Part shown: piece after piece, positions 956 through 23,845 of the stretch | Position numbering within the stretch: the stretch's first letter is position 1 | Layout of the letters: each line of letters begins with the position of its first letter | Source: Escherichia phage vB_EcoM_ESCO9 | Direction: 5' to 3' (one strand) | Sequence record: OM386654.1 | DNA length: 64,000 bases | The notes under the pieces: generated by a model | Database searches by the model: none | What the model saw: the letters and a program-made list of their open reading frames with translations, nothing else | Told to the model about the DNA's origin: nothing | Program-made: the position numbers and the translations under genes

Positions 956-1123
956 TTAATTGTGAAAAATGTTATCGATCAGTATGACTAGTAGTACGAG
1001 GATAGAAGGGAGCAGGAATAGAAATCTTAACATTATGTGATGCGTGTGAGAAGCGGCTTTAGCTCCAGCCGCCAATAAGCCTACTAATCCTACAATAAAG
1101 AGCAGTTGTTCAGGGACACCCAT
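956..1123 (-). CDS. small hydrophobic membrane protein (55 aa), approximate
   Basis: ORF below track cutoff; start overlaps stop of upstream gene (TAATATG); hydrophobic. Confidence 0.3.
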   Translation of the reverse strand: MGVPEQLLFIVGLVGLLAAGAKAASHTHHIMLRFLFLLPSILVLLVILIDNIFHN

Positions 1124-1124
1124 A

Positions 1125-1349
1125 TTATGGAACACTTGGATACTCCGTAAGTTTGGCTAACAGTTGAATATGTGGACACGTGAATTGTTGTCCTGGATAG
1201 CGTGAGCTAATATCATCCAGTAAAGCAATCACAGCATTGTGCAATGCTTCGTAATCTTCATAATACACCATTTCTCCATTAGGATCTTCAACAATATCGC
1301 AGTGACAAGCGTGAGCAGTACACGCATCCCATTCCAGACGTTTTACCAT
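1125..1349 (-). CDS. hypothetical protein, Cys/His-rich
   Basis: 74 aa ORF packed in minus-strand operon. Confidence 0.5.
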   Translation of the reverse strand: MVKRLEWDACTAHACHCDIVEDPNGEMVYYEDYEALHNAVIALLDDISSRYPGQQFTCPHIQLLAKLTEYPSVP

Positions 1350-1358
1350 AAATTCTCC

Positions 1359-1577
1359 TTACTCATACGTTTGATATGATACATAACGATTGCAATCAAG
1401 TGCGAGAAACTTTTCAGCATCTCTTTGATGCTTGAACACAATACACTGTTCTTTTTTAGCTGCACTTTCACGAGCTTCTCTTGCCATATACTCACCTAAA
1501 CGAACGATACCAGAGAATAACACGTATGCAAGAATAAGACAAACAGTGATTGCACAGAAAGTTTTAAACTTAACCAT
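1359..1577 (-). CDS. small membrane protein
   Basis: Internal ATG at 1577 preceded by GGAGAAA RBS; hydrophobic N-terminus. Confidence 0.5.
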   Translation of the reverse strand: MVKFKTFCAITVCLILAYVLFSGIVRLGEYMAREARESAAKKEQCIVFKHQRDAEKFLALDCNRYVSYQTYE

Positions 1578-1938
1578 TGTATTTCTCCATATCACGAATA
1601 CGATCAATCACCCATTGTACACGTTCTTTATTAAGGTGTGCAATGCCTAGCTCTGTTTCCGTAAAGTAGTGCGAGAAATCCGTATTAAACGGATGTAAAT
1701 GGTTCAAACCCGCTTTCTTAAATTGTTCCTTCATTTCCTCTCGTACAGAGGATTGGAGCTTTGATACATTCTCAACATCTTTTATCCAAGCAATGTTGTA
1801 TAAGAAGTCTACAAGACACGTGCAAAGACCATAATGCTTTTTGCTAAAGTTTGTATCTTCTTGTTCCAACCACCACTCATAAAATTGTAGCAAATAGGGG
1901 CTGCTTTTCATGTTACACACTTTATTATTCTCTTGCAT
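1570..1938 (-). CDS. hypothetical protein; paralog of 362..946
   Basis: 122 aa ORF; AAGGAG RBS 7 nt upstream. Confidence 0.6.
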   Translation of the reverse strand: MQENNKVCNMKSSPYLLQFYEWWLEQEDTNFSKKHYGLCTCLVDFLYNIAWIKDVENVSKLQSSVREEMKEQFKKAGLNHLHPFNTDFSHYFTETELGIAHLNKERVQWVIDRIRDMEKYNG

Positions 1939-1947
1939 GGCTGCTCC

Positions 1948-2247
1948 TTAATGCCAATCTACGATCACTGAATCTACAAAACCCTCTTTGGTGTTTAAAG
2001 CATACACCTTACTAAGTCCACGCTCTCGTAGTGCTTCCATAGCAAGATCAATCAAATCAACTTGGCGTTTCCTTGCTTGTTCATTTGTCGGATAGTCATC
2101 CAAACCGAAAACAGATGGTTTAAATGCTTTGGAGTATTTGCCAGTCTTAGCCTTATCATAACAGTCCTGAATAATTTCATCAATAGGAAACCACAAACCT
2201 TCCCCGCTTTGCTTTGCAATACAACGCAGTTTTTCTGTAACAGTCAT
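1948..2247 (-). CDS. hypothetical protein
   Basis: 99 aa ORF; AAGGAGAGG RBS. Confidence 0.6.
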   Translation of the reverse strand: MTVTEKLRCIAKQSGEGLWFPIDEIIQDCYDKAKTGKYSKAFKPSVFGLDDYPTNEQARKRQVDLIDLAMEALRERGLSKVYALNTKEGFVDSVIVDWH

Positions 2248-2456
2248 TCTTCCTCTCCTTTCAATTTACACTCAAAGATACCATTCTTAATGTTATCTGT
2301 CAAATAAAGGCTATCTTCTATCTCTTCTTTTGTATACACATAAGCCTCCTTTTCCACGTCTGTCAGACCTTGCATCGGAGCTAGTAGCCACCAGCCCCGC
2401 CAGTCAAACATAGGAGACTTATCAGATACACGAAGAATGTATCTATCATTACACAT
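2244..2456 (-). CDS. hypothetical protein
   Basis: ATG at 2456 coupled to stop of upstream gene; track start at 2465 is TTG. Confidence 0.45.
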   Translation of the reverse strand: MCNDRYILRVSDKSPMFDWRGWWLLAPMQGLTDVEKEAYVYTKEEIEDSLYLTDNIKNGIFECKLKGEEE

Positions 2457-2457
2457 A

Positions 2458-2910
2458 TTATACAATGTTCACATGAACATCTGCAACACCAATAAGAGAA
2501 TATACTTCAACTACACTCTGTGTACGATCCAGCTTGTAACGTTTTGCCTCTTTTTCAACTTCCTCACGGGAGATGGTTTCCATGATTGGAACTCCATCCA
2601 CTACAAGCAGGTATTTCTCTTCATGCTTACTTTTTGGTGCTTCTTCTAATACTTCTACAAAGTATTCAAACTCACTTTTTGCAAGCAACGTGTAACACTG
2701 AAGAAAGTCTCCTTCATTTTGAGCGATAATTTCTTGTTCTCCTGCTAAGGATTGCAAAGCAGTGACACCATACCAGTCATCCACATCTAATACACGAAAA
2801 TAGGAATCACCTAAGAAAGAAGCAATCCTGCTATTGCACTCAGACACATTAGCAAACTTACGGATATAAGATGGGTTTTTAAAACGATACACTTTACCAA
2901 TTTCAAACAT
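2458..2910 (-). CDS. hypothetical protein
   Basis: 150 aa ORF; AAGGAG RBS. Confidence 0.6.
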   Translation of the reverse strand: MFEIGKVYRFKNPSYIRKFANVSECNSRIASFLGDSYFRVLDVDDWYGVTALQSLAGEQEIIAQNEGDFLQCYTLLAKSEFEYFVEVLEEAPKSKHEEKYLLVVDGVPIMETISREEVEKEAKRYKLDRTQSVVEVYSLIGVADVHVNIV

Positions 2911-2921
2911 TACACAACTCC

Positions 2922-3098
2922 TTATTGTTCAAGAGTAAAAGGAATGATCTCACCATAGCTGTATTGCATGGCATTCACTTCTGCTTCTGCACGTTGTGCT
3001 AGTTCTAATGTTGCACAGATTTTATAAGGTACAGTGCTGCATTGGCTCCAGCCTGGGGTATTCTTTGTTACTAAGTACACAGTAGTTTCTTTATTCAT
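2922..3098 (-). CDS. small hypothetical protein (58 aa), approximate
   Basis: ORF below track cutoff; AGGAGAGG RBS. Confidence 0.3.
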   Translation of the reverse strand: MNKETTVYLVTKNTPGWSQCSTVPYKICATLELAQRAEAEVNAMQYSYGEIIPFTLEQ

Positions 3099-3552
3099 AA
3101 CTTTCCTCTCCTAGTTCATCATACCATTTCAAAGCGTCTTTTGGAAGCATACCAAAATCTTCTTTCAGTTCTTTTTCAATCTCTTCTTTCATTTCATTCA
3201 ACACTTGCAGTTGGCGTATTTTCTTCCGTAACAAAGTTTCCCGCTCATTGTTGCTTGGTGTTACTTCATTTGCTGCCATCATCACATATCCGGTCGGGGA
3301 GCAAGGAAGATAATCATCAATATTTTCTAAAGCATAACGAAAATTGGAATCCAAGAAGTTTACATGCACTTGATCACATCCAAACAACTTGGCACGAAAT
3401 ACTTCATAACGAGTTTCAGATAAGATATGTCGCACACAGACAATACCTACATCATTTTGCACTGCACAGGTTACATCCAACAAACTTGAGTGTTCTTTGA
3501 CATAATCTGCAACACATTGCACATGTGCTTCCAGTATAGATAGTTGTCTCAT
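3091..3552 (-). CDS. hypothetical protein (first gene of left operon)
   Basis: 153 aa ORF; GGGGAGG RBS. Confidence 0.6.
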   Translation of the reverse strand: MRQLSILEAHVQCVADYVKEHSSLLDVTCAVQNDVGIVCVRHILSETRYEVFRAKLFGCDQVHVNFLDSNFRYALENIDDYLPCSPTGYVMMAANEVTPSNNERETLLRKKIRQLQVLNEMKEEIEKELKEDFGMLPKDALKWYDELGEESYE

Positions 3553-3961
3553 TTTCTACCTCCCCATAATGCTAACATTTTATTGAAAAATGGAAACGCG
3601 TCGTGCGCGGTATGCAAACCACTATACAGACATTTTTATTCAATGCAAGCATTATTTGCATCTTCGATTCTGTCTTTCACCCACTGCAATAATGGAGGAA
3701 TTAGTATAGGTATTCCCTATCAATTATTCTATATATACCTATTATTTTTAACACACCCCTTTGTACATAATATAGACAAATAAATATCTATGCCACAAAA
3801 ATTTTCCGGTATACCCGATTTATTTCGACACACCCCCTTTTCATAAGCGTAAAGTCAATAATATCAATAACTTGCCGCAAAATACTGCTCGCTTGCGAGA
3901 GGTGCTTAACGCGATTTTCAGCGCCCCCGATTTCTGCCGACCGTCCCCCTCAAATATCAAT

Positions 3962-3980
3962 GAGAATTATTATCATTTGC
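3962..3980. promoter_or_regulatory. Fur-box-like site
   Basis: gagaattattatcatttgc versus Fur consensus GATAATGATAATCATTATC (about 14 of 19). Confidence 0.35.
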
Positions 3981-4156
3981 ATTATCATTCAATGACTTAT
4001 AAGACTTTTGATTATTTTCTGAGCAAGAAAGGCACTACTCACAACAAAACAGATAAATTCTAAGTAAATCAATGGCTTGGCATTTCTAAACATCTATATA
4101 CACCTTGCCAAATGAAATGATCCTGCGTGAAATAGTGCTACCCGTGGAAGATAGCT

Positions 4157-4175
4157 GATAATGATTATCATTTGC
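4157..4175. promoter_or_regulatory. Fur-box-like site (best match)
   Basis: gataatgattatcatttgc matches Fur consensus at 16 of 19 positions. Confidence 0.5.
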
Positions 4176-4512
4176 ATATTTTCTATACTATAAAACACCC
4201 TAAAAATCAAGATAATTCTAATTTATTGCGCTTTTAAGAAAGTAGGCTCAACAAATGATAGGCTATATGGGGGGCAATAGTATGAAAAACCATCTATTCA
4301 TATATAAATAATTTTGCGCAATAGTGTTAATATTTTTCTTGACAAGAAAGATTTCTTTGTGTTCACATAGCGCCCCCTGGAAGGTGGCGCATTATGATCA
4401 TCAGCATCATTATTCACGATGTTTATTATTGTATAGCTTATTATTTAGCTTATATTATAGCCAATGTTCTAAACATTAGCTAATAATAACGCACCGCAAC
4501 AATGTAAGGGAT

Positions 4513-4556
4513 ACAATATACAATTGTATATTGTTGCGCTTGCAGTTGTTGCAAGC
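4513..4556. repeat. two adjacent perfect palindromes
   Basis: acaatatacaattgtatattgt (22 bp perfect inverted repeat) followed by gcttgca-gttgt-tgcaagc. Confidence 0.6.
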
Positions 4557-4695
4557 TACATAAGCACAAATAATGACTATCGGTGATGGTTATTATGTGG
4601 GGTGTGTAGTTGCGTTATTATTAGCCGCCTATGTGTCCGGCATAGGCTGCTAATGATACGCTTGCGAATTATATTTCTTGTTATAGTTATTGTAT

Positions 4696-5050
4696 GGAAT
4701 GATTACCACATGAAATGGTTACTGTATGCAATGATTACTGTATGAAATGATTATCTAAGTAATAGATAGGAAGGTAAAGATTAGACCATAAATAGATAGG
4801 ATGTGAATTATTTAGTAATGTTACTAACAATTTAATAGTTACTTTGTGCAACAATTCGATAGATTATAATTGTAGTTTTAAGGGTTAGATAGATTATATT
4901 TAGCTTAGTAATGATTTATATTAGTTATTATTGTTTAATACAATGTTATCAATGAGATAGTAACAGTAAGTTATAAATAAAGGTGAGATAATTAGTTTTA
5001 ATTTAGTTAGATAACTTATTATTTTATAGGTTAGATGGTCTTAAGTTAAG
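4696..5050. repeat. AT-rich iteron-like short direct repeats
   Basis: Repeated words aatgattac, tgtatg(a/c)aat, aatagatagg, ggttagat(a/g)g. Confidence 0.45.
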
Positions 5051-5122
5051 AATGATTCTCATTATTGCATTATGCAATTTATTGCATAAATAATCAGCTA
5101 TAAATAAGAATGATTATCATTT
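5051..5122. promoter_or_regulatory. Fur-box-like sites plus palindrome
   Basis: gaatgattctcattattgc and agaatgattatcattt; palindrome ttgcattatgcaa between them. Confidence 0.4.
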
Positions 5123-5320
5123 AAGAGGAAAGACAAGAAAAAGGCTGTTTTTGCCAGGTAATTACATGAAGAAATTAAAAATAAGCGGTCTAAAACACGT
5201 TGTAAGCGCCTTATGATCTTCATGGTATGGTTGTTCATCTGCTCCTTGATTAGCTCGATACCGCGATCTATTCACTTTTTTCGGTGAACGTTTTTGATAG
5301 GTAAAAGCTATCATCTTTAT

Positions 5321-5353
5321 TTAGGTAAAAAGAAAGGGCGCAATAAGCGCCCT
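5321..5353 (-). terminator. intrinsic terminator after gene 5369..5752
   Basis: Stem agggcgc/gcgccct followed by T-run on the minus strand. Confidence 0.55.
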
Positions 5354-5368
5354 TGTTTGAAATGTTAT

Positions 5369-5752
5369 TTACTGATAAGCTGGATCGTTTGTTATATCAA
5401 TCCAATGAGATAAATTAATTTTATTTTTTGCTTTCATTTTCTCGATCAAACGTTCGGCTAATGTTTCTGAACGAATATAAACATGCTCGCTAAAATCTTG
5501 CCCCGTTTCTTCGTCGATCATTTCTCTATATTCAACCTTGCCGATAAACGCATGATTCAGCGCATAAGTTTTACCCGTGTACCAGTTATGTAAATGGATC
5601 TCGCATTTATAATCATCGCTATACCCTTCGGTTGTTCTAACTTCAACCAAGTCACCTTTAAACACTGATAAGCACCACATAGGATCACGATCTACAGCGC
5701 CGTTAAAATCTTTACCGTTTACAGTAGCCGCCAGGTTGATGATATTGCTCAT
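5369..5752 (-). CDS. hypothetical early protein
   Basis: 127 aa ORF; GAGG RBS. Confidence 0.6.
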   Translation of the reverse strand: MSNIINLAATVNGKDFNGAVDRDPMWCLSVFKGDLVEVRTTEGYSDDYKCEIHLHNWYTGKTYALNHAFIGKVEYREMIDEETGQDFSEHVYIRSETLAERLIEKMKAKNKINLSHWIDITNDPAYQ

Positions 5753-5827
5753 GGTGATTCCTCGTTTACCGTTTAAAATGATTTGCCCTACACGATAACT
5801 ATAAGTTAACAGAGGCTATAAAGCAAG

Positions 5828-6058
5828 TTATTTTTCAAAAAATTTTTCTACTGTGATATTCTTCCCAGTGGGATTAGCTACTTTCAAAATTTTATCATGT
5901 ACTGGACGCCCAAAAGAATAAGATCCGTATACAGTAAACCAATAATCACCGTCAGGCTGTACTATCACCGCTGCATAGGGTACGCCTTTTTCGTTATTGC
6001 TGACAGAATAGATCACATTGCCGTTAATAGCTTCAGCGCGTTTAATTTGTTCGATCAT
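5828..6058 (-). CDS. hypothetical early protein
   Basis: 76 aa ORF downstream of promoter-hairpin cassette. Confidence 0.55.
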   Translation of the reverse strand: MIEQIKRAEAINGNVIYSVSNNEKGVPYAAVIVQPDGDYWFTVYGSYSFGRPVHDKILKVANPTGKNITVEKFFEK

Positions 6059-6075
6059 GATATGATTCCTATATT

Positions 6076-6137
6076 GAGCGGGAAACCACTTCCCGCCTTA
6101 CGTGATACATCTTAGTATAAGGGCGATCCGGTGTCAA
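6076..6137 (-). promoter_or_regulatory. early promoter plus leader stem-loop cassette
   Basis: Minus strand: TTGACA, 17 nt, TAAGAT, then hairpin GGCGGGAAGTGGTTTCCCGC. Confidence 0.6.
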
Positions 6138-6481
6138 TAGGTAGGATTGTAAATATTTGATAGTTTATTCCTTTGATGTTTTGTTGTTTGATAGGTATTA
6201 GCTATTAATATATAGCGGGATCTTCCGGTGATTATCTTCCCCTGTCCCCAGGTGCCGCCCGTTCCATAATAATAATCAAAAGCAGGATAAAAGGCAAGAT
6301 AAAAAGCAAATTATTTCCTATGTGCTTTAAACGCTCTAGATAGCTTTATAACAGCTTTTTCATCCTGGTAAGGTGATTAATCATTCCTACCTTGTTTAAG
6401 CGGTTACAGTCGGTTTTAGATGGTTTTACGCCACCTTTACGCCTATTCTTTACGTGTCGCTTCCATTGTGAAAAAGAATAC

Positions 6482-6513
6482 AAAAAAGGGCGCTTAGTGC
6501 GCCCCTTTCTTTT
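6482..6513. terminator. bidirectional terminator-like hairpin
   Basis: aaaaaa-gggcgc-ttagt-gcgccc-ctttctttt. Confidence 0.5.
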
Positions 6514-6521
6514 ACCGTGTA

Positions 6522-6911: not shown

Positions 6912-6934
6912 AGTATTTACCTTTTTGATTACCT

Positions 6935-6993: not shown

Positions 6994-6999
6994 TACTTT

Positions 7000-7608: not shown

Positions 7609-7713
7609 TTATCCAATACCGTGGGAAGATAGGATCATGTTAGCCATAGTTGCAACCAATCCAACCGATAACGCCAGGCCAACTATTACAACCGTGAAAA
7701 TTTTCTCTAACAT
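7609..7713 (-). CDS. small single-TM peptide (34 aa), approximate
   Basis: MLEKIFTVVIVGLALSVGLVATMANMILSSHGIG; GAGGGTAG RBS. Confidence 0.3.
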   Translation of the reverse strand: MLEKIFTVVIVGLALSVGLVATMANMILSSHGIG

Positions 7714-7794
7714 GATTCTACCCTCATTAATGGGCGTTGCCTTATTGCCCCGCCCTATGTCGTACACTTTACCAGATAACCGCGTATTGTCAAA

Positions 7795-8386: not shown

Positions 8387-8557
8387 TTACTCTTCATCGT
8401 CGCCGTTATAGTATTCAATGCCGTTTTCATCGGTTACAGTAATGTTAACGCCACCGATAGCAACACGATCACGGGCAAACGTCATGGCTTCATTTAAATC
8501 TTCAGACCAAAAAATATTGTGACCTTTGCGCGATACATAAAACATAGTTGGGATCAT
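8387..8557 (-). CDS. small hypothetical protein (56 aa), approximate
   Basis: ORF below track cutoff; AGAAGAGAAA RBS; sits downstream of cassette 8579..8640. Confidence 0.35.
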   Translation of the reverse strand: MIPTMFYVSRKGHNIFWSEDLNEAMTFARDRVAIGGVNITVTDENGIEYYNGDDEE

Positions 8558-8578: not shown

Positions 8579-8640
8579 GAGCGGGAAACCATTTCCCGCC
8601 CTATGTGATAAACTTTACTACGTTGTTTGCCTAGTGTCAA
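8579..8640 (-). promoter_or_regulatory. early promoter plus leader stem-loop cassette
   Basis: TTGACA, 17 nt, TAAAGT, hairpin GGGCGGGAAATGGTTTCCCGCTC. Confidence 0.6.
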
Positions 8641-9008: not shown

Positions 9009-9332
9009 TCAATAATCTTTAAGATTTTCTACATTTACAAAAGTGCGTTTATTTTCTAAGTTTTCGCCGTACCATTGCCCCATGTTGATTTCTGCGGTGC
9101 GCAACCAGGACATGCCGCGTTGTATCTTTTTACTTGCAATCTCGATCCGGCTTTTGCATAGTGCTTTCGCTTGCAATGTAAAAACACTATTGCCCTGTAA
9201 TGCTTCCAGGTCATCATGTGCAAGGCGATACTCTTTAAAGCCTGATTCTATCATTTCAATAGCATCAAGTAAACGCGCGCGATGATAGAAAAAATCAGAG
9301 TTATCCAAATAAACACCGATCACAGATTTCAT
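9009..9332 (-). CDS. hypothetical early protein
   Basis: Start moved to ATG at 9332 (MKSVIGVY...) with AAAAGGGTAAAATT RBS. Confidence 0.5.
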   Translation of the reverse strand: MKSVIGVYLDNSDFFYHRARLLDAIEMIESGFKEYRLAHDDLEALQGNSVFTLQAKALCKSRIEIASKKIQRGMSWLRTAEINMGQWYGENLENKRTFVNVENLKDY

Positions 9333-9432
9333 AATTTTACCCTTTTGTTTGCGGCCTTTGCCGTTTTCAAGATATAGTTTAAAGCATAACAAAAAATTGT
9401 CAAGCCTTTAAAGCGTACAACTATAAAACCTA

Positions 9433-9552
9433 TTAAAACACAATGTATAACAACATGGCTATAGTAGCAATACAACATAAAGCCATGCTTGTTTTCCTTC
9501 CTTCCTCGTATGCTGGATTTATTACGCTATATTGTACGGGAATAATTTTCAT
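9433..9552 (-). CDS. small hydrophobic peptide (39 aa), approximate
   Basis: MKIIPVQYSVINPAYEEGRKTSMALCCIATIAMLLYIVF; AAGGAAACAGC RBS. Confidence 0.3.
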   Translation of the reverse strand: MKIIPVQYSVINPAYEEGRKTSMALCCIATIAMLLYIVF

Positions 9553-9561: not shown

Positions 9562-9657
9562 TTAATGTCTTAAAACGTGGTTTACAATAGAAACAAGCAT
9601 ACAGAAGAAAAAAGATCCTGTCAATAAGATACCGAAAAATAAATGTAAATAGGGCAT
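9562..9657 (-). CDS. small hydrophobic peptide (31 aa), approximate
   Basis: MPYLHLFFGILLTGSFFFCMLVSIVNHVLRH; AAGGAG RBS. Confidence 0.3.
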   Translation of the reverse strand: MPYLHLFFGILLTGSFFFCMLVSIVNHVLRH

Positions 9658-9661: not shown

Positions 9662-9964
9662 TTACTCCTTAAAAAAATCATTGACAATTAAACTGATAAC
9701 GCCCAGCACCAGATCACCAGGTAGTGCCGCGCTTTCGTTGTTGCTTGTTTGCACTTCCTCACTAGTACCAGCACGATAGATTGCATGGTAAGCAATAGTA
9801 TAATAACCTTTCGTTATTTCTTTAAGATTAATGATTAGCACGTTATTTGTTTCATCTTGAAACAATTTAGCGGTGATAGTATTGTTTTCTTTTACACTAT
9901 CGACTTTTATTGATGGATCATTTACACCAGAAAAAAGAAAAAACGTTTTAGCTATGCCGTTCAT
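9662..9964 (-). CDS. hypothetical early protein
   Basis: 100 aa ORF; AAGGAG RBS. Confidence 0.55.
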   Translation of the reverse strand: MNGIAKTFFLFSGVNDPSIKVDSVKENNTITAKLFQDETNNVLIINLKEITKGYYTIAYHAIYRAGTSEEVQTSNNESAALPGDLVLGVISLIVNDFFKE

Positions 9965-10696: not shown

Positions 10697-10724
10697 AAAG
10701 GGCGCTTATTGCGCCCTTTTTTGT
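10697..10724. terminator. bidirectional terminator-like hairpin
   Basis: aaagggcgc-ttatt-gcgccc-ttttttg. Confidence 0.5.
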
Positions 10725-10876
10725 TATTCGTTCCAGTATCTTTTTGTGCTGCGATCTCTCTTTGTTTTGTTCCGCTTGTCGCCTTTTTTGGTGATCTCTT
10801 CGTTCCAATCTTTACGCGCCTTGCTGCGGTTGAATTTTTCGATCTGCTGTGATGCGTTCATGTTTCTTCCTCTTAA

Positions 10877-12196: not shown

Positions 12197-12291
12197 ATTA
12201 TTTTCTATTTCTTCCGTAATAGCCTAACTTATGATCTAAGCTAAAACGTTTTGTGAGATAGGTCGAACGATGTTTCATTTTTATACCTCCT

Positions 12292-12985: not shown

Positions 12986-13080
12986 AGTCTTTAATCTCTT
13001 TTGATTAGTTAGGAGTATTCCCGATAAAAGTTATTATGCTTGTACTATCGTTCGTTGTCAATAGCACAAGACTAAAACTT

Positions 13081-13260
13081 TTAACGATAATCATCATATG
13101 CTTTATTGACCTGGCGAATATAGCATTCAAAAGCTAGATCAATAGATTTATATTCACGGATATAATCACCATAGGAAACCACATACATTTCTATAGCTTC
13201 CTCATATGCCAGGATGATAGAATCTAAACCTACGATCTCAGTCTTTGCAATAATAGCCAT
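13081..13260 (-). CDS. small hypothetical protein (59 aa), approximate
   Basis: ORF below track cutoff; AAGGA RBS. Confidence 0.3.
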   Translation of the reverse strand: MAIIAKTEIVGLDSIILAYEEAIEMYVVSYGDYIREYKSIDLAFECYIRQVNKAYDDYR

Positions 13261-13408
13261 GCTTTTATTCCTTAGTCATGTTTCAATCTATATAAGCATT
13301 ATAGCTTACTGATTTCAGGTGTCAAGTGATTTTTTTTATTTCACCTTATGGGGCGTTGCCCCGCTTTATGTGGTACATATTACGGGGCTTGTTCGCATAT
13401 GTCAAGCC

Positions 13409-13964: not shown

Positions 13965-14225
13965 CTAATTTGCCTCTTCTGTTAGTAGTTTACATACCTT
14001 AAACATGCTTGCCGCGTCTTTTGACGGTAGCCAGCCTATGCGATACACTCCCGGATCTGGATTAGTTATATCAGTCAGTTGCGCGTTGCGATGATTAAAA
14101 ATAGTGTAACCGCCGCCAGCACGGGGATAAACATTATCTTTAAACCTGATAGCGTATCTCGCCAGGTTGAACGTTGCAGCATGTTCAAAAGCGATCACAT
14201 TATCAAAAACTTTTAGAAAAAACAA
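13965..14225 (-). CDS. hypothetical early protein
   Basis: 86 aa ORF. Confidence 0.55.
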   Translation of the reverse strand: MFFLKVFDNVIAFEHAATFNLARYAIRFKDNVYPRAGGGYTIFNHRNAQLTDITNPDPGVYRIGWLPSKDAASMFKVCKLLTEEAN

Positions 14226-14227: not shown

Positions 14228-14374
14228 TTATCCTCCCCAGCGTTTAAAGCCCGTTGCACGGTTGTTTTTTAGCTCTCGTTTTAGTCTCTTGCAACGGTTT
14301 ACAAGTGCAAACCGTGCCGGAGTCGTAACAGTAGCGCCGTTTTTGGTGTGAATACTCATTACATATTGTTTCAT
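14228..14374 (-). CDS. small basic protein (48 aa), approximate
   Basis: ORF below track cutoff; K/R-rich; AGGA RBS. Confidence 0.3.
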   Translation of the reverse strand: MKQYVMSIHTKNGATVTTPARFALVNRCKRLKRELKNNRATGFKRWGG

Positions 14375-14393
14375 AAAGTTTTATCCTATGTAA

Positions 14394-14446
14394 GCGGGAA
14401 CTATTCCCGCTTTAAGATAGCTTATCAGGTTTTAGTGCAATGTCAA
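14394..14446 (-). promoter_or_regulatory. early promoter plus leader stem-loop cassette
   Basis: TTGACA, 16 nt, TAAGCT, hairpin GCGGGAATAGTTCCCGC. Confidence 0.55.
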
Positions 14447-15257: not shown

Positions 15258-15632
15258 GAATATTTTTAAAAAATAATAACCGCAACTACAATCCAAAATG
15301 GAACGGCAAGAATGATAGCGTTAATCGTTCCAACCGTCAAGCTGTTTTCTTTCTTGATCATCGTTATCAACCTTTTATAAGTAATGTTATTGTGACGGTG
15401 GATTATGGAGATCCTCACCTTTGCCCGTCCTACATTGCGCCCTCCTTTTGTTTATTGTCGTTGTGCCTCGCCCCCTCGACAAGATGAATAATACGCTACC
15501 AGGTGAGGAACGTCAACCCCTTTTTTAATCTTTTTTTCATTTCTTTTTTTTTTTGCTTGCTATCTATAAAGGAAAGGGCTATTATCTTTCTACCGCGCCA
15601 ACCAGGGCGCACATCAAAGAAAGGGCGATACC

Positions 15633-15899
15633 ATGACAAATACTACTCTACACCTCATGCACTCATTAGGCTGGCAAGGCGGCACGGTGCACCAGGTAGC
15701 AAGCGCAACGGGCTTAAAGGTTGAAACCGTTCTCAACCTGGGCGATCATAAGGTGGAAGAAATAGATCATTTTGATCCGTTCGCCAATGGTTATCTATGG
15801 GCTTGCAGTGGCGGCGGGGAAAGCAAGATACCACCAGGGGCGCGGGGCGATATGTATTTTTGGTTAGGTGTCCTATCCTGGCAAGAAAACAAAAAGTAA
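15633..15899 (+). CDS. hypothetical protein (uncertain)
   Basis: 88 aa plus-strand ORF in a locally GC-rich patch; weak AAAGGG RBS. Confidence 0.3.
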   Translation: MTNTTLHLMHSLGWQGGTVHQVASATGLKVETVLNLGDHKVEEIDHFDPFANGYLWACSGGGESKIPPGARGDMYFWLGVLSWQENKK

Positions 15900-15901
15900 T
15901 A

Positions 15902-15930
15902 TTGACAAGCCCAGGGATCGGGCTTATACT
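15902..15930 (+). promoter_or_regulatory. near-consensus sigma70-type promoter with no obvious downstream ORF
   Basis: TTGACA, 17 nt, TATACT. Confidence 0.5.
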
Positions 15931-16160
15931 GTTTTACATACAGAAGAGGAAACGCCACCCCCACGGCGTAAAGGCGGGGCTAACATACCAGGGGGCACTG
16001 GTTGGAAGGTTGATCGCCGGTAGCTCGTCTAAAATAAATTTGTAAAGAAATGTAAAGATAAAAATAATCGCTTGCTTTTGTTGTTGGTTATGCTATTCTT
16101 ATTGTATGGCGAGGGGACACGGGAGCGCGAGACAAACACCGCCCCTGCGCGTTATTCTCT

Positions 16161-16275
16161 AAATGAGAAAATTCTCATTTGCTAATGATTCTCATTCTCT
16201 TACTGAGAATGATTATCACTTACATAGTTAAATGATAATGATTCTCATTTACAAACGAAAATGATTCTCATTAAC
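16161..16275. promoter_or_regulatory. cluster of about five Fur-box-like sites
   Basis: aaatgagaaaattctcattt palindrome, gagaatgattatcacttac, aaatgataatgattctcattt, aaaatgattctcattaac. Confidence 0.5.
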
Positions 16276-16289
16276 ACACCTATAAAAAC

Positions 16290-16500
16290 ACGAAATTGAA
16301 CTTTTCATTTTTGATTTTTCTACGGAAAAAGGCAAAAAAACTTTAAATAAACTGGGGAATTTTTAAAAAATTGAAGTTTTCATTTTCAAAATCTGGATAG
16401 AAATACATACAAAAACTTTAAATAATTTTGACCAAACTTGAACTTTTCATTTTCAAAATTTGTACCCAAAAATCTGTAAAAACTTTAAATAATTTTGTAC
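16290..16500. repeat. three tandem ~67 bp direct repeats
   Basis: Each unit has TTGAAcTTTTCATTTTcaaaat ... aaaaactttaaataatttt. Confidence 0.6.
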
Positions 16501-16711
16501 TTTTTATAAAAATGATTTTACTGTTCTGTTATAAGTAGTAGTTAAGAGATAGTATGTCTTTTAAAGATCAGATACCATAGTCAAACAAACAAATTAAATA
16601 CTTTATTAACAGAGTACAGAATAATATTTACTCTGGATATATTATTCAGAGGGTGGATTTCCGTACATGAAACCCACACCCCTTTTTATAAAAATAAAAA
16701 TTTTCAAAATA

Positions 16712-18253: not shown

Positions 18254-18289
18254 CTACTACTCCTCTTATTAAATCTGGCATTAATGCAA

Positions 18290-18315
18290 GAAAACCCGCC
18301 GAAGCGGGTTTTTAT
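18290..18315. terminator. terminator-like hairpin after AAA ATPase gene
   Basis: acccgc-cgaa-gcgggt flanked by A-run and T-run. Confidence 0.5.
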
Positions 18316-18327
18316 TTGCTGGCTTAC

Positions 18328-19455
18328 TTAAAACACACTTGCCAAAGTTGCACCATTGGTGATAGTTGGTTCCAGAACAATACGGAAAGAATCTTCTGGA
18401 TCATCACTAAACACAACGATTTTACCGCCTGTGATAAGATCTGCTTTCATTTTTGTCGCATTCAATGGAATTCGAGCATCGCCTTCATCATCAAAAACCA
18501 CGTAAGAGCTATTAGCAAGGGCTTCTTTAGAATCTGCATCACTTGGAGATGACAAGTACACGTCTAGTGTGCACGAGCCACCTAAAAAGATTGCAGGTGT
18601 AAAGTTATGCCAACTAGATACCCAGCTAACTTTCTGAAGTTTCCCATTAATAACAACACTGCTGATATCCCATTTATTACCACCACCTAAAGAAACGCCC
18701 ATCATAGAGATGCATTCTTTAAAGGATAAATCAGGGTAGAAATTAAGTTCTTCTACTATACCTTGGATCACATCAAAGGACAACTCTAAACTTACATCCC
18801 AAAGTCTTTGGAAATTATCAAAGTGTGCTTTGTTATCCAGGTTTTTATCTAAATAGTCAATCATAGTTTCTAGTGAGATTTTATCATAATTAAAATTATA
18901 AAACACACGACTAGGACGATTTAAAAAGAATTCAGAGATAAAACCACTGTTTTTAGTCAGAATAAACAGTTTATTACCACTGCCAGTACCATCTAACAAA
19001 GTGAGAAGTGCTTCTTGATCTTGTTTCTTCTCATACACTTTATCAAACTCGTCAAAAATAATCACTGCTTTGTCTGTGATCTTGCTAATAAGTTCAATGA
19101 AATTAGCATCGCTGTAGGCTTGAGTAACCATAATAGTTGGAATACCTTCTTCTACAAGGTCACGACTAATGAGTTTGGCTAACATAGTTTTACCACTGCC
19201 CTTAGTGCCTGTCAGGAGCAAACCTGTATTTTTACCTTGTGCACTCCGGCGATGGAATGTACGAATAACGTGATTTGCTCGTTTTTCTGTTTCACCATAC
19301 AGAACATCCGGTACACCTGTTAGATTACCACGGCTTAAAAAGTAATTGCCAAGGGGATCACGACTAACAGTATAGAATCCAGGTGGAAGATAGTTAGATT
19401 CCACGCCCATATCTTTATTTACACTTACAATATCACCATAAATCGTGTATTTCAT
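18328..19455 (-). CDS. AAA-family ATPase; paralog of 33435..34595
   Basis: Walker A GTKGSGKT, Walker B IIFDEFDK, LFILTKN...RPSR region. Confidence 0.7.
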   Translation of the reverse strand: MKYTIYGDIVSVNKDMGVESNYLPPGFYTVSRDPLGNYFLSRGNLTGVPDVLYGETEKRANHVIRTFHRRSAQGKNTGLLLTGTKGSGKTMLAKLISRDLVEEGIPTIMVTQAYSDANFIELISKITDKAVIIFDEFDKVYEKKQDQEALLTLLDGTGSGNKLFILTKNSGFISEFFLNRPSRVFYNFNYDKISLETMIDYLDKNLDNKAHFDNFQRLWDVSLELSFDVIQGIVEELNFYPDLSFKECISMMGVSLGGGNKWDISSVVINGKLQKVSWVSSWHNFTPAIFLGGSCTLDVYLSSPSDADSKEALANSSYVVFDDEGDARIPLNATKMKADLITGGKIVVFSDDPEDSFRIVLEPTITNGATLASVF

Positions 19456-19467
19456 TTTAAACCCCTT

Positions 19468-19905
19468 TTATCTTTGTTGAGATGAACGAATTAAATCAGC
19501 AGCAAATTCAATCAGATACACTTTTGGTGCAATAATAATTTTTAGCCAATCGAAATTCGAAAAGAAAATAACAAATCCTAAAAAGAAAAAGAAAGCACAG
19601 ACAACAAGACCAACAATAGGCAAAGCAGATACCTCACCATAGCGATCTCGTGACCACAGACATTCTTTATCTTTAATTGCTTTTATGAGGTTCCGCACAA
19701 CAATAAAAGTAATAAACATAAAGCAAATACTAAAAAGTTGCCATAAACCTGCGGATACTGCTTTCCACATTAATAATTGATGAATTACTTCTGGAATTTG
19801 TTGTTTTCCAAACTCTACAACATCACTCATTGTTTGAATAGTGACGTTAACCATGTTCAGAAGTACATCAGTTGCTTTATCTGCGATTGCGTTTGTTTTA
19901 CTCAT
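19468..19905 (-). CDS. membrane protein
   Basis: 145 aa with hydrophobic helices. Confidence 0.6.
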   Translation of the reverse strand: MSKTNAIADKATDVLLNMVNVTIQTMSDVVEFGKQQIPEVIHQLLMWKAVSAGLWQLFSICFMFITFIVVRNLIKAIKDKECLWSRDRYGEVSALPIVGLVVCAFFFFLGFVIFFSNFDWLKIIIAPKVYLIEFAADLIRSSQQR

Positions 19906-19919
19906 TCTTTATTCCTCAC

Positions 19920-20093
19920 TTACCTTTTAAGGAAACCAATCATAATGAAGAACCACATCCAGGCAGGAGAGATAATAAAGCCAAAGAAACCGCAAATAAC
20001 CGCTTTCTTAATCTCTTCCAGACAACCCACCAGGAAAAGAACGAGTGAGACTACAATCCAGATAGCCATAAATACTGTAACAAAGAAACTCAT
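19920..20093 (-). CDS. small membrane protein (57 aa), approximate
   Basis: ORF below track cutoff; GGAGAAAGG RBS; two hydrophobic segments. Confidence 0.3.
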   Translation of the reverse strand: MSFFVTVFMAIWIVVSLVLFLVGCLEEIKKAVICGFFGFIISPAWMWFFIMIGFLKR

Positions 20094-20113
20094 ACCTTTC
20101 TCCCGTCTGTATT

Positions 20114-20365
20114 TTAAAATTCAACCACTACTTTGTCGAGGTGCTCTGCTTCAACTTGATCTAATGTTAACACCTCAACTAAACCCTTGTCAATACCTAA
20201 TTTAATAACATCAACATATTGTCCAAACAGATCCTGAATAGATATCTTGTGTTCGACAACAACCACTACTTCATTCCCTTTTGTGAATTCTCTCCATACA
20301 CGTCCACATTTGAAAATAAAGTCTGCTTCGTCTTCTGTTATCATTTTAGGTTTGATGCTTAACAT
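20114..20365 (-). CDS. hypothetical protein
   Basis: 83 aa ORF. Confidence 0.5.
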   Translation of the reverse strand: MLSIKPKMITEDEADFIFKCGRVWREFTKGNEVVVVVEHKISIQDLFGQYVDVIKLGIDKGLVEVLTLDQVEAEHLDKVVVEF

Positions 20366-20916
20366 TATAAAACTCCGTATTCCGGCTCAAAATCATATTT
20401 TTCACAAATCATGTCCCAGCGTTCGTTGCCGAAGCTGCGACCACAAATTGCATCGTAAGCATAATGCTCTGCTAACCATTTTACAACAGTGTCTACATCG
20501 TTATCAAGTGGTAATCTGAATTCTTTGCCGTATCGCATACGAAGAACAAATTCATCCCCTTCTTCAAACAAGTGCATATGGCTTTTTGCATAAGAAGCAA
20601 GGTTGAAAAAAGATACCTTTTCCCAGCATTCTTTTTCCACTGCAATTCCGTGATCAACAACTAAAGTACCGATAACGCGATACATAATAGGACTAAACAG
20701 TGCGCTTGGGCTAGGCTGCTCTTCAACTATAGACCAACCTGTCCCCTGCCAAATTTCATTTTTGAACCATTGTTGCATGTCATTCCCTTTTTCATCTACA
20801 ATGGATCGGTTACGCATTTCAAACCATTCTCCTTCGCAAAAGTATTTATGTTTAACGCGTTTGCCTTTTAACATTGCTTCTTTGGCTTCTATCCAAGTCA
20901 GATCGGTGTTTTGCAT
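20365..20916 (-). CDS. hypothetical protein
   Basis: Start moved to ATG at 20916 with GAGGAG RBS 8 nt upstream. Confidence 0.55.
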   Translation of the reverse strand: MQNTDLTWIEAKEAMLKGKRVKHKYFCEGEWFEMRNRSIVDEKGNDMQQWFKNEIWQGTGWSIVEEQPSPSALFSPIMYRVIGTLVVDHGIAVEKECWEKVSFFNLASYAKSHMHLFEEGDEFVLRMRYGKEFRLPLDNDVDTVVKWLAEHYAYDAICGRSFGNERWDMICEKYDFEPEYGVL

Positions 20917-21035
20917 TCGTTTATCTCCTCTCATTTGTGTATGCATTAAGATTAGCACAATAAAACAGTATGTCAATACTTGATCTGAAATTAATTTCTG
21001 GTACTCTGTGTGTATCGTAACAAAAGAGGTTAGAT

Positions 21036-21326
21036 ATGAACATCACACTAGCAACTAAGAATATTACAGAAACTTTTGATGGTTTTGGCATTATTATTGC
21101 TGTTCATGGGCATAACGAAAAATGGTTAGCCTCTTTTGAAGAGGACAAAGAACGCAATGTACGTTTGAATGCACCAATCAAAGTTTTACACCAGGTAGGT
21201 GAGAATAAGAAACAATGGAGATCATACAAAGAGTGGAACATTACGAACGAGTTAATACACAAACTTGACAAAGTGATAGACATGTTCGACAATGCACCCA
21301 TCGGTACAAAACGTGTCTTAATGTGA
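21036..21326 (+). CDS. hypothetical protein
   Basis: 96 aa; AAGAGG RBS; first gene of plus-strand block. Confidence 0.55.
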   Translation: MNITLATKNITETFDGFGIIIAVHGHNEKWLASFEEDKERNVRLNAPIKVLHQVGENKKQWRSYKEWNITNELIHKLDKVIDMFDNAPIGTKRVLM

Positions 21327-21338
21327 GAGGAGAACAAA

Positions 21339-21623
21339 ATGTACTATTCACAAGACGAAGCAGCAAACATTAAACTGGCAGTTGGCGATCTTATTGTGTC
21401 ACCTAACTACCATTGGGATAACACAGATTTGGTTGAAGTAGTAACTCATGTTGGGTTTGAGGGTGTTGTGCTCTACACACTGGGTGGAGGTGTTGTTGGG
21501 GAAATGGAACGTTATACAACAACGAAGAAACTGGTAAGCTCTTATCGCATGTTTTTACACCAAGGCTCGGAAGAGTATACAGCTTTCTTGTTGAAATTAG
21601 ACGCAGATCGGGAGAAGGCATGA
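21339..21623 (+). CDS. hypothetical protein
   Basis: 94 aa; GAGAGGAG RBS. Confidence 0.55.
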   Translation: MYYSQDEAANIKLAVGDLIVSPNYHWDNTDLVEVVTHVGFEGVVLYTLGGGVVGEMERYTTTKKLVSSYRMFLHQGSEEYTAFLLKLDADREKA

Positions 21624-21976
21624 TGAAAATTGTACACGATGAAATTCAATTTGAAGAGAGTGATCTTCTTGATCTAGATGTGACACTAAGTAAACTGATC
21701 TACAATGCACTTTCTACATATCGTGCAAAAGTGATAGCCACAAACAATGTTAAAATTCCTAGTGGGTTACTTCGTCGGATGTACCCACACGCTAAAGGTG
21801 ACTATCTACCTTATATGGAAGAACGAGCAGCAGAACACTGGCTAGAAATTCTTGAAAAAATGGAGTCCTCTTTTAAGGATTCAACTCCACCAGAAGAAGT
21901 TAATGAAAAACAGCGGCAAGATCGTTTAGAAGGTCGCATTTTGTTTGCTAAGTATTTCCATAATCTGTGGATGTAA
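21620..21976 (+). CDS. hypothetical protein
   Basis: 118 aa; ATGA start-stop overlap. Confidence 0.55.
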   Translation: MMKIVHDEIQFEESDLLDLDVTLSKLIYNALSTYRAKVIATNNVKIPSGLLRRMYPHAKGDYLPYMEERAAEHWLEILEKMESSFKDSTPPEEVNEKQRQDRLEGRILFAKYFHNLWM

Positions 21977-21988
21977 CAAGGAGTAAAC

Positions 21989-22144
21989 ATGGTTATCTAC
22001 AAAAATAAGTTCACTGGCTGTCTGCGTAAATTTATTGACAAAAAAGGGTATGTTTCTGTTGACAATGGTGTTACGTGGGTGCAAAATGGCACTTCAGAAC
22101 AACTGATCAAGGCTTTACCTTACTATGAGGAGTTTACAAAATGA
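21989..22144 (+). CDS. small hypothetical protein (51 aa)
   Basis: AAGGAG RBS; stop overlaps next start. Confidence 0.35.
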   Translation: MVIYKNKFTGCLRKFIDKKGYVSVDNGVTWVQNGTSEQLIKALPYYEEFTK

Positions 22145-22341
22145 CAGGATGGGTAAAAGTAGAAGATCCATACGATATTCCACTAGGTGAGTATGTGGTG
22201 GTAATGGAAGATGGTGAAAAAGGGTATTGTGAAGTGCATAAAAGTATGTCTGGTAAGATTATTGTGGTGAACCATCATTTTCACTTTGATTACCCTCCTA
22301 TTGTGGCATATATGCCTTTACCTAAATATGAAGGGGATTAA
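22141..22341 (+). CDS. hypothetical protein
   Basis: 66 aa; GAGGAG RBS. Confidence 0.5.
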   Translation: MTGWVKVEDPYDIPLGEYVVVMEDGEKGYCEVHKSMSGKIIVVNHHFHFDYPPIVAYMPLPKYEGD

Positions 22342-22488
22342 ATGTTATTCTTTAAACTTAATATTGCTTTTTGTTTGTTTGCAAACATTGCATTCTGGGT
22401 ACTAGGTAGTGTAAAATTAGGCTACTTCTTTATTGTACTACAAGCTATTTGTTTAGCTGGTCAAATAATCACTAAGGGGCGAGTATGA
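22342..22488 (+). CDS. small membrane peptide (48 aa)
   Basis: AAGGGGA RBS; hydrophobic; ATGA overlap with next gene. Confidence 0.35.
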   Translation: MLFFKLNIAFCLFANIAFWVLGSVKLGYFFIVLQAICLAGQIITKGRV

Positions 22489-22913
22489 CACAACAAATTC
22501 AAGACAAGTTTAATGAACTCTATCCAGCAAGCGAAAGCGGCACTCATAACGTGCGTAAATCGCTCTATAACGTCTTTAAAGCAGGATGGGAGGCTTGCCT
22601 TCAGGCTCAAGAAAAACCAGTGTCAGGGACGCGTAACGGCTTTTATATCCCGATTGTTGAAAGTGAGGAAGGATGGGGTAGCAAACATGATGGTTATATG
22701 GTAGGATTCACCATAGAAGATCTTGAAGAACGCCGTAAAGTCTTTGAGGCAGCTAATACAGAAAAGTATGGCTACTATTATGAACGACCTGTTCGTTACA
22801 TTCCTGTTGTGCTTAGTCCTAAAGCTGTTGAAACAATGTCTGCAACAGAAAAAGAAAGGACTCGCCATTGTGTATGGTTTGATGATATTGACGACTTTCG
22901 ATTTGGAGACTAA
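22485..22913 (+). CDS. hypothetical protein
   Basis: 142 aa. Confidence 0.6.
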   Translation: MTQQIQDKFNELYPASESGTHNVRKSLYNVFKAGWEACLQAQEKPVSGTRNGFYIPIVESEEGWGSKHDGYMVGFTIEDLEERRKVFEAANTEKYGYYYERPVRYIPVVLSPKAVETMSATEKERTRHCVWFDDIDDFRFGD

Positions 22914-22916
22914 TTT

Positions 22917-23189
22917 ATGAAAAATAAACACCCTTACTATCAACTATTGCATGTACTGCGCCGATTGCGCAATAAGCAGATTGAAGATTTCCGTCACTTC
23001 AAGCGTGATCGTGTGAATCGTCAATGGATGGATCATCGTTTCTTCTCTTTAACTGTACGTAAGTTCCGTGAAGAGATTAAGAAGACAGACCAGGTAATTG
23101 CAGGTGCTAAACGTGCAATCTCTATGTCAAAAATCACAGGTGTAAATCATATGTACGACTTCAAAACAGACTCTGTTGTACCTATGTAA
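22917..23189 (+). CDS. hypothetical protein
   Basis: 90 aa. Confidence 0.55.
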   Translation: MKNKHPYYQLLHVLRRLRNKQIEDFRHFKRDRVNRQWMDHRFFSLTVRKFREEIKKTDQVIAGAKRAISMSKITGVNHMYDFKTDSVVPM

Positions 23190-23353
23190 AAGTATTTTGT
23201 AAAGTTTTGTGGAGAGTATTGACTTTTTCAGAAAAACATGCTACCCTAAACCTGAAAGGTGACGAGCGAAGCGAGTTAGTATTCTCTATAGATATTGTTC
23301 CTGTCACTCATGGAGGGGCAGGAACAGAGTGTATTACTGTATAGGAGAATACT

Positions 23354-23620
23354 ATGGATGTTACTACACTAAGGTTTATACTTCTCTTCTTACTTATAGT
23401 TATAGGATTAATTGTTATACCCTATCTATACGTCTACATGTTATCTCGTAAGTATGGTTATGATCGTATACCATTTTACTATTTAATACCTGTCTTAGTT
23501 ATCTATCTATTTCTCTTTTGTAGATATTGCCCTGAATTAGTTCCTGAACATTGGAAGTTAGAACCTGTTGAAGTTTACCATTGTGAATGGAAGACAGAGT
23601 ACAGATCTAACAGTAATTAG
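23354..23620 (+). CDS. membrane protein
   Basis: 88 aa; two hydrophobic helices; AGGAGAATACT RBS. Confidence 0.55.
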   Translation: MDVTTLRFILLFLLIVIGLIVIPYLYVYMLSRKYGYDRIPFYYLIPVLVIYLFLFCRYCPELVPEHWKLEPVEVYHCEWKTEYRSNSN

Positions 23621-23623
23621 TTA

Positions 23624-23652
23624 TTGACTCTATCTACTAAATAATCTAGACT
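23624..23652 (+). promoter_or_regulatory. sigma70-type promoter
   Basis: TTGACT, 17 nt, TAGACT. Confidence 0.45.
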
Positions 23653-23680
23653 CTATGTAAAATTTACTAAGGAGACTACT

Positions 23681-23845
23681 ATGCAAAACATTTCTATCAC
23701 TAAAACAAAAAGGTCTGTACCTAAACTTACTCACTCTACATATCCTGTTATCATCCGTAAAGGAAAAGAATGGATTAAAGATGATCATGGTGGTTATGTA
23801 GAAGTGTCAAAGCTGAAAGAAGCAGAAGTTAACTTTGTACGCTAA
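23681..23845 (+). CDS. small hypothetical protein (54 aa)
   Basis: AAGGAG RBS. Confidence 0.35.
   Translation: MQNISITKTKRSVPKLTHSTYPVIIRKGKEWIKDDHGGYVEVSKLKEAEVNFVR

Follow-up and report, generated by a model that had tools for sequence, protein, structure and literature searches.

Thirteen short open reading frames in the accessory region of Escherichia phage vB_EcoM_ESCO9: probable small genes, mostly already known

Do the short open reading frames (ORFs) that fall below a 60-amino-acid (aa) cut-off in the accessory part of a coliphage genome represent genes, and, if they do, what could their products be? The question is raised by a 64,000-nucleotide (nt) stretch of Escherichia phage vB_EcoM_ESCO9 (record OM386654.1), called the window below, for which a first-pass annotation, made from the sequence without database searches, had listed 13 such ORFs. 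The account preferred here, which as a whole is regarded as quite probable, is that these are real, translated small genes of a phi92-like phage, located in an accessory ("hyperplastic") region that flanks the genome terminus on either side. The closest phages to the first 24 kb of the window are KKE7M, 92CQ and muut, with 96-97% identity (296 phage records were matched), and, judged by this relatedness, the window is that of a Justusliebigvirus (phi92-like), an E. coli myovirus of the Stephanstirmvirinae. PHROG scans of the larger ORFs revealed four blocks: small genes directed leftward at 1-21 kb; small genes directed rightward, starting at 21 kb; a block reaching up to 58 kb with genes for a DNA helicase, NrdD, a primase-helicase, a DNA polymerase and a methyltransferase; and tail-fibre genes beyond 58 kb. 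The part of the window running from 5368 to 3907 corresponds to the right end of phi92, including its 343-bp direct terminal repeat, so the region without genes at about 3.6-5.4 kb represents the physical genome terminus, and the candidates are placed in the accessory regions that flank it.

Direct reading found all 13 ORFs in frame, each with an ATG start and a stop codon. Nine lie on the minus strand, 956..1123 (55 aa), 2922..3098 (58 aa), 7609..7713 (34 aa), 8387..8557 (56 aa), 9433..9552 (39 aa), 9562..9657 (31 aa), 13081..13260 (59 aa), 14228..14374 (48 aa) and 19920..20093 (57 aa), and four on the plus strand, 21989..22144 (51 aa), 22342..22488 (48 aa), 23681..23845 (54 aa) and 34846..35001 (51 aa); each is named below by its first coordinate. 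Twelve had been listed with these limits, and the entry for 34846 had been given without its stop codon, the true end being 35001 and not 34998. The strength of the Shine-Dalgarno (SD) sequence was expressed as the energy of the anti-SD duplex, with 180 other ATG-initiated ORFs of 30-59 aa from the same 36 kb as the background. The mean energy was -6.5 kcal/mol for the 13 candidates versus -1.2 kcal/mol for the background (Mann-Whitney p = 2.4e-7). The SD motifs ascribed to all the candidates are clear for 10 of the 13, which fall in the best 5% of the background, with the exceptions of 956, 8387 and 14228: ORF 956 has no usable SD (-0.2) and starts 1 nt past the upstream stop codon (TAA-T-ATG), and 8387 (-2.9) and 14228 (-4.0) carry the weak AGAGA/AGGA SD common to the cassette genes described below. 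The start-stop coupling proposed earlier can be read directly from the sequence as overlaps or short gaps to neighbouring genes; most of the candidates overlap a neighbour or lie 0-14 nt from it. ORF 2922 shares the overlap ATGAATAA with the upstream gene 3091..3552; 21989 and 22342 each overlap the downstream gene by ATGA, and 22342 also adjoins its upstream gene as TAAATG; 9562, 9433, 14228, 34846, 956, 7609, 19920 and 23681 lie within 2-20 nt of a neighbouring gene on one side or both. The SD of the next gene lies within the last codons of 14228, of 34846 and of the upstream neighbour of 9562.

Evidence for the preferred account comes from the pattern of substitutions among relatives. A search of IMG/VR anchored on two conserved proteins yielded only 3-4 close relatives, and the richer set of GenBank phages was used instead, giving a panel of at most 26 related loci: about 17 from Justusliebigvirus-like phages, 9 from Phapecoctavirus-like phages and a single rV5-like one. 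Every variable site was counted once and classed as synonymous (S) or not (N) in each frame, with a binomial p value. A significant synonymous excess, confined to the claimed frame, was found for 956, 2922, 7609, 8387, 13081, 14228, 19920, 21989 and 23681; the same nine ORFs show third-position bias, and the p values range from 3e-3 to 6e-12. No synonymous excess was seen in the other five frames or in spurious control ORFs. The negative controls, small ORFs taken from other pipelines (3989..4093, 4394..4483 and 5162..5314 in the terminus region, plus 20921..21091 and 23219..23344), showed no codon-position bias in any of the five; 3989 has gained stop codons, and some relatives have a broken version of 3989, 5162 or 23219. 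The candidates are intact across Justusliebigvirus orthologues, except for 2922, which is disrupted in muut, and 21989, the start and C-terminal length of which vary. The case for real small genes is strong for nine of the ORFs, good for three and open for one, and the gene calls are considered sound for 12 of the 13.

Among the nine, ORF 956 encodes a predicted hydrophobic peptide with two transmembrane (TM) spans; it follows the gene 1125..1349 by 1 nt, downstream of its own stop codon come GGAGAGG and the start codon (ATG) of gene 362..946, and its counts are S14:N1 (p = 5e-8, intact in 5/5). ORF 2922, encoding a soluble product, shows S26:N12 (p = 4e-10) and matches phrog_24303 along its whole length (1-58/58); its Phapecoctavirus orthologues, with 91-95% aa identity, reach a later stop by read-through and are annotated as coding sequences of 195 nt. 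The muut orthologue (locus L002, 3716..3890) is broken into two frames, through a frameshift or an error in sequencing. ORF 19920, encoding a two-TM product, lies between genes 20114..20365 and 19468..19905 and shows S5:N0 (p = 4e-4, intact in 15/15), with a full-length match to phrog_22950 (1-57/57); its family comprises two clusters only among 5.8 billion proteins. Two paralogous AAA-type ATPases, both assigned to phrog_2376, are encoded on opposite strands at 18328..19455 (minus) and 33435..34595 (plus), with small ORFs near each. On the plus strand, 21989 (soluble product, AAGGAG SD) shows S29:N31 (p = 2e-6) with a third-position bias of 31/60 and matches phrog_2381 at positions 7-45 of 60; orthologues of 48-49 aa are present in 10/10 relatives of the first panel. 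ORF 23681, encoding a basic soluble product behind a TAAGGAG SD, shows S9:N2 (p = 4e-5, intact in 13/13) and belongs to phrog_10388.

Three more of the nine are preceded by repeated upstream units. On the minus strand between 6058 and 15257, there are 17 promoter matches of the form TTGAC[AG]-N16/17-TAnnnT, 13 of which are then followed by a GC hairpin, with one such cassette per gene, gene pair or short operon. The full unit consists of the promoter, about 10 nt, the GC hairpin (consensus GGGCGGGAAAtggTTTCCCGCC, dG -13 to -20), the AGAGA/AGGA SD and the ATG. ORF 8387 had been singled out earlier as being served by its own promoter-hairpin cassette; the cassette is real (8640..8579; promoter TTGACA-17-TAAAGT, 8640..8612; hairpin, 8601..8579, dG -15.8) and it is not alone, since 7609 (7793..7732) and 14228 (14446..14383) have the full unit too. 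The hairpin would lie in the mRNA leader, at the 5' end, and it would not be a classical terminator because no U-tract follows the copies inspected. The product of 7609, a single-TM peptide, is encoded with S13:N7 (p = 2e-4) and is intact in 17/17 loci over two genera; every aa change is conservative within the TM segment, and phrog_14631 is matched in full (1-34/34). ORF 8387, encoding an acidic soluble protein, shows S14:N2 (p = 1.5e-8, intact in 15/15) and matches phrog_20874; the protein is 100% identical in all 8 first-panel orthologues from two genera, and AlphaFold 2 (AF2) modelling predicted a beta-beta-alpha-beta-beta fold with a predicted local distance difference test (pLDDT) score of 85. 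ORF 14228, encoding a basic product, shows S5:N1 (p = 0.003, intact in 13/13) and matches phrog_8393 at positions 2-48 of 111; the gene 13965..14225, which starts with TTG, has its SD in the 3' end of 14228 (GGGGAGGA-TAA). A reading of 14228 as part of a split or frameshifted gene was rejected, the downstream ORF being a full-length member of another family, phrog_17947.

The last of the nine, 13081, encodes a soluble protein and has a perfect TTGACA-16-TATAAT promoter (13325..13298) and no hairpin. It shows S43:N32 (p = 6e-12) and matches phrog_9374; its family comprises 32 clusters, nearly all with proteins of 59 aa, from rV5-like phages, phi92-like phages and jumbo-phage contigs of about 350 kb. 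The nucleotide identity with phage V18, an rV5-like phage of another subfamily, is about 93% (window 13079..13266; locus L097, 601..788), and the homology begins about 5 nt ahead of the ATG and ends 4 nt past the stop codon, the flanks being unrelated. Judged by these limits of homology, 13081 is a mobile single-gene module; the presence of 13081, of 9562 and of 14228 varies from one relative to another. The AF2 model of the 13081 protein has a pLDDT of 96, and the fold search among viral models revealed the same fold in uncharacterised proteins of about 60 aa from many phages, and nothing else.

The substitution counts are weak for 34846 (S3:N6, not significant) and 22342 (S6:N5, p = 0.02, marginal), and no homologue of either was found in Phapecoctavirus-like loci, as would be expected if these and similarly weakly supported ORFs were chance ORFs kept through the near-identity of the genomes; such an origin is nevertheless considered unlikely. 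The SDs of 34846 (-10.7, the strongest of the set) and 22342 (-7.9) are among the strongest, each ORF has a full-length PHROG family (phrog_24275, 1-51/51, and phrog_27111, 1-48/48), the aa changes are conservative (all in 34846, most in 22342), and the SDs of the downstream genes fall inside both. Moreover, the neighbouring genes lie 0-12 nt away or overlap by the 4-nt ATGA, which leaves no space for regulatory DNA. ORF 34846, encoding a soluble product whose sequence suggests a helical peptide, fills the slot between gene 34630..34833 and a hydrolase gene (ATG at 35004), 12 nt and 2 nt away from them, respectively, and its 3' end contains the SD of the hydrolase gene. It was matched in 53 records and is annotated at the match in every listed record bearing annotation; the slot itself is variable, as one relative (L093) has an unrelated 100-aa gene there. 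ORF 22342, encoding a two-TM product, is intact in 55 records.

Several points weigh against reading the whole set as translated small genes with a role in infection. The synonymous excess is not significant for 9433, 9562 and 34846; the power of the test is low because most genomes of the panel are 95-98% identical; T-rich DNA gives hydrophobic peptides by default when translated; no RNA, ribosome-footprint or peptide data were found in the literature searched for phi92-like or phAPEC8-like phages; and the function of the small genes is wholly inferred. The most exposed candidate is 9562, which has no PHROG family and no homologue beyond one genus and overlaps a promoter-like site.

This site belongs to the 9.3-9.7 kb region. 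ORF 9433 encodes a predicted tail-anchored protein with a polar N-terminus, VxYxVxNPAxxEG[KR]K, and a C-terminal TM segment. Its overall counts are not significant (S4:N6), the N-terminal polar half has synonymous changes only, the ORF is intact in 55 records, and it matches phrog_10979, labelled "membrane protein". The syntenic site of Phapecoctavirus contains a 39-aa orthologue with 42-48% identity, the same motif, a C-terminal hydrophobic tail and a promoter-hairpin cassette of its own. Three records (92CQ, Eryne and Bas62) call a different ORF here, the 49-aa 9329..9478 (minus strand), which overlaps the downstream gene by ATGA and is open in 11/11 panel genomes. That this ORF is the true gene between 9332 and 9562 is very improbable: it spans the TTGACA-16-TAAACT promoter and the leader of gene 9009..9332 and shows S2:N6, whereas 9433 has an SD, stops short of the promoter and has the annotated orthologue. 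ORF 9329..9478 is probably a mis-call, since it has no PHROG family and no coding signature.

The adjoining 9562, an uncertain single-TM candidate, contains the promoter-like sequence TTGACA-17-TATGCT (9624..9596), correctly placed to serve 9433. The corresponding slot in Phapecoctavirus, ahead of the 9433 orthologue, contains a promoter-hairpin cassette without an ORF; the counts for 9562 are S2:N3, giving no coding signal, and in the phi92 clade both hexamers are altered together, to TTGTCA (weaker) and TATACT (stronger). It is thus tentatively conceivable, and to be taken seriously, that 9562 is not a gene and represents the promoter and leader of 9433, its hydrophobic frame being a by-product of T-rich DNA. 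On the other hand, its AAGGAG is ideally spaced (duplex energy -8.7, in the top 1% of the background), it is coupled to the upstream gene 9662..9964 by TAA-N4-ATG, the ORF is open in 55/55 records, and the three aa changes found (T13S, M20I and R30K) are all conservative. The region could also serve as coding sequence and promoter at once; 9562 may code for a peptide, supply the promoter of 9433, or do both.

What the small genes could encode was considered next to their context. Six products are strongly hydrophobic, as had been claimed, with a grand average of hydropathy (GRAVY) of 0.9-1.7 and a best 19-residue Kyte-Doolittle window of 1.9-2.9. The description of such products as single-TM peptides fits 7609, 9433 and 9562, and 956, 19920 and 22342 have two predicted spans. 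The remaining seven products are small and soluble, and two of them (8387 and 13081) were modelled confidently as compact domains. Pfam and PADLOC searches gave no match for any candidate; a PDB sequence search with 8387, 13081 and 2922 and a Foldseek search against PDB with the AF2 models of 8387 and 13081 found no significant neighbour; Rfam and tRNA scans for overlapping RNA genes yielded nothing significant.

The hydrophobic peptides had been suggested to be holin-like or membrane-targeting host-takeover peptides. All six share one feature of holins, being small proteins with one or more TM segments, and the two-TM peptides 956, 19920 and 22342 are similar to class II holins in their size (48-57 aa) and their two hydrophobic spans. 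As noted in the rV5 paper (PMC3606486), holins contain TM helices and are poorly conserved in sequence. The C-termini of the three two-TM peptides are short, with 0-2 charges, and are not highly charged tails; no holin or lysis family was matched in PHROGs or Pfam; the 29-kb region of Eryne annotated with Pharokka contains no annotated endolysin, holin or spanin; and the genes scanned in the window, which are accessory, replication and tail genes, included no lysis gene. The neighbours of the six are accessory and replication genes, and none of the six lies near lysis genes; 956, 19920 and 22342 are found in sigma-70-promoter blocks or beside replication genes, and only consensus sigma-70 promoters of the early type were found upstream of the candidates. 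The holin idea fails because context, homology and promoter type go against it; a lysis role is unlikely for the small genes in general, and it is extremely doubtful that the three two-TM peptides in particular are holins or other lysis-timing proteins. The second suggestion, membrane-targeting host-takeover peptides, would be a reasonable guess.

The candidates had also been described as unannotated, which is true only relative to the 60-aa cut-off and does not stand against public records. Phage phi92 (NC_023693, annotated in 2012) contains gp207, gp211, gp213, gp219 and gp228, which equal 23681, 22342, 21989, 19920 and 14228, respectively, with at least 90% identity and the same lengths, order and ribosome-binding-site calls; gp235 corresponds to 8387 by size (171 nt). 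In phi92 the gap corresponding to 9433 and 9562 is unannotated, and there is no annotated coding sequence of the size of 13081. The curated annotation of the BASEL phage Bas62 (JohannJBalmer) and the pipeline annotations of 92CQ and Eryne include 10-12 of the candidates, Bas62 adding 7609, 8387, 9562 and 13081 to the phi92-equivalent genes. PHROG hidden Markov models matched 11 of the 13 candidates (E values of 1e-8 to 1e-46, with nine of these matches along the full length), the families being 24303, 14631, 20874, 10979, 9374, 8393, 22950, 2381, 27111, 10388 and 24275; ten are labelled "unknown function", and 10979 is labelled only "membrane protein". No PHROG family was matched by 956 or 9562. 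Orthologues with at least 90% aa identity, the same length and synteny are present in related Justusliebigvirus genomes, and searches with 9433, 9562, 22342 and 34846 in the whole phage collection matched 53-55 records each. Real annotation gaps concern 9433, 9562 and 956: 9433 is replaced by 9329..9478 in three records, and 9562 and 956 both lack an annotation in several genomes, about half of the annotated ones inspected, 956 being annotated in 92CQ and JLBYU50 and without annotation in muut and KKE7M. The small genes are correct but mostly already known, and the finding is an ordinary one. Its practical meaning is that the 60-aa ORF cut-off conceals roughly a fifth of the accessory-region genes in the phi92-like group, and that public annotations disagree on the shortest genes and over-call tiny ORFs in the non-coding terminus.

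The list of at least 13 small genes, sound for 12 of its entries, is incomplete. A sweep of all gap-filling ORFs revealed at least one more, 10724..10861 (minus strand, 45 aa, very basic), with S8:N4 (p = 2e-4), an intact frame in 13/13 and the SD AAGAGGAAG; it has a clear coding signature, matches Phi92_gp237 by size (138 nt) and position and is considered a good gene. Two further minus-strand candidates are plausible as genes, namely 12198..12278 (26 aa; SD AAAGGAGGT, -12.9; S3:N0 from 4 sequences only) and 15266..15418, whose 50-aa product would end in a hydrophobic C-terminal tail. A GC-richer (0.43), gene-poor segment lies at 15300..16700, where the leftward block is broken by a short rightward gene (15633..15899), repeat regions are annotated in muut and public annotations disagree on the ORF calls. 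Within the terminus region, a 16-bp tandem repeat is located at 4687..4753, and 92CQ and Eryne annotate tiny ORFs in the stretch 3907..5368, where there is no coding signature. Among the records matched to the phage group of the window are 19 GenBank entries named "Campylobacter phage" (A145, A110a, C3 and others), 17 of which give C. jejuni as the host; the listed ones have about 96% identity to this group of E. coli phages, and their host labels look doubtful.

Taken together, these data are consistent with the following scheme for the small genes of the accessory region. The host sigma-70 RNA polymerase would transcribe them from consensus promoters; in the 6-15 kb block, nearly every gene or gene pair would have its own promoter, and most promoters would place a stable GC hairpin about 10 nt past the -10 hexamer, at the 5' end of the mRNA. 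ORFs 7609, 8387 and 14228 would use the full promoter-hairpin unit and 13081 the promoter only, and the remaining candidates, inside tightly packed operons, would be translated from their own SDs, with stop-start coupling probably serving 956, 2922 and 22342, and with 21989 and 22342 presumably linked to the next gene by the ATGA overlap. Six products are predicted to be inner-membrane micro-proteins, three with a single span, including the conserved tail-anchored 9433 family, and three forming two-span hairpins. The role of the small genes would most likely be a dispensable early accessory function, e.g., host takeover, superinfection exclusion or counter-defence, as suggested by position, promoter type, presence/absence variation and the exchange of single genes between lineages. 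Host-takeover and anti-defence functions are as a rule found among early accessory micro-proteins of this kind, and nothing in the analysis points to a new mechanism.

Two known systems can be compared with these small genes. The superinfection-exclusion proteins Imm and Sp of phage T4 are small early membrane proteins of model coliphages. The hydrophobic candidates resemble them as small hydrophobic products of early, non-essential genes; they are shorter (31-57 aa) and no sequence similarity was detected, so that the likeness is one of analogy only.

The second system concerns the upstream units, for which no description in the phi92-like phage group was found in the literature searched. In T4-type phages, units of a sigma-70 promoter and a stem-loop flank small ORFans and mediate their shuffling; these cassettes are known as PeSL, promoter-early stem-loop (Arbiol et al. 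2010, PMC2839356; Comeau et al. 2014, PMC4122927). In both cases, a repeated strong sigma-70-like promoter, a GC stem-loop, an SD and an ATG precede small orphan genes in a variable region, the presence of genes differs among close relatives, and single genes are swapped between lineages. A bolder reading would make the promoter and leader hairpin a second, independently evolved PeSL-like vehicle for micro-genes among rV5-like, phi92-like and jumbo coliphages, and the 9433 family (39-aa tail-anchored proteins of two genera, with an early promoter of their own, mis-annotated or missing in most phi92-like genomes), together with the adjoining 9562, an unrecognised class of early membrane effectors acting, e.g., in a host-envelope block or superinfection exclusion; this reading is speculative and rather improbable. 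There are differences too. T4-type phages are a family unrelated to the phage of the window; their stem-loop is mostly located between the -35 and -10 hexamers or over the -10, whereas here it lies about 10 nt past the -10; and it is a terminator there, while the hairpin found here has no U-tract in the inspected copies and a terminator role would be only putative. In the case of 13081, the homology between lineages covers the coding sequence itself and not a flanking cassette. Since the placement of the hairpin differs from that of the T4-type stem-loop, the resemblance to PeSL is one of function and not of membership.

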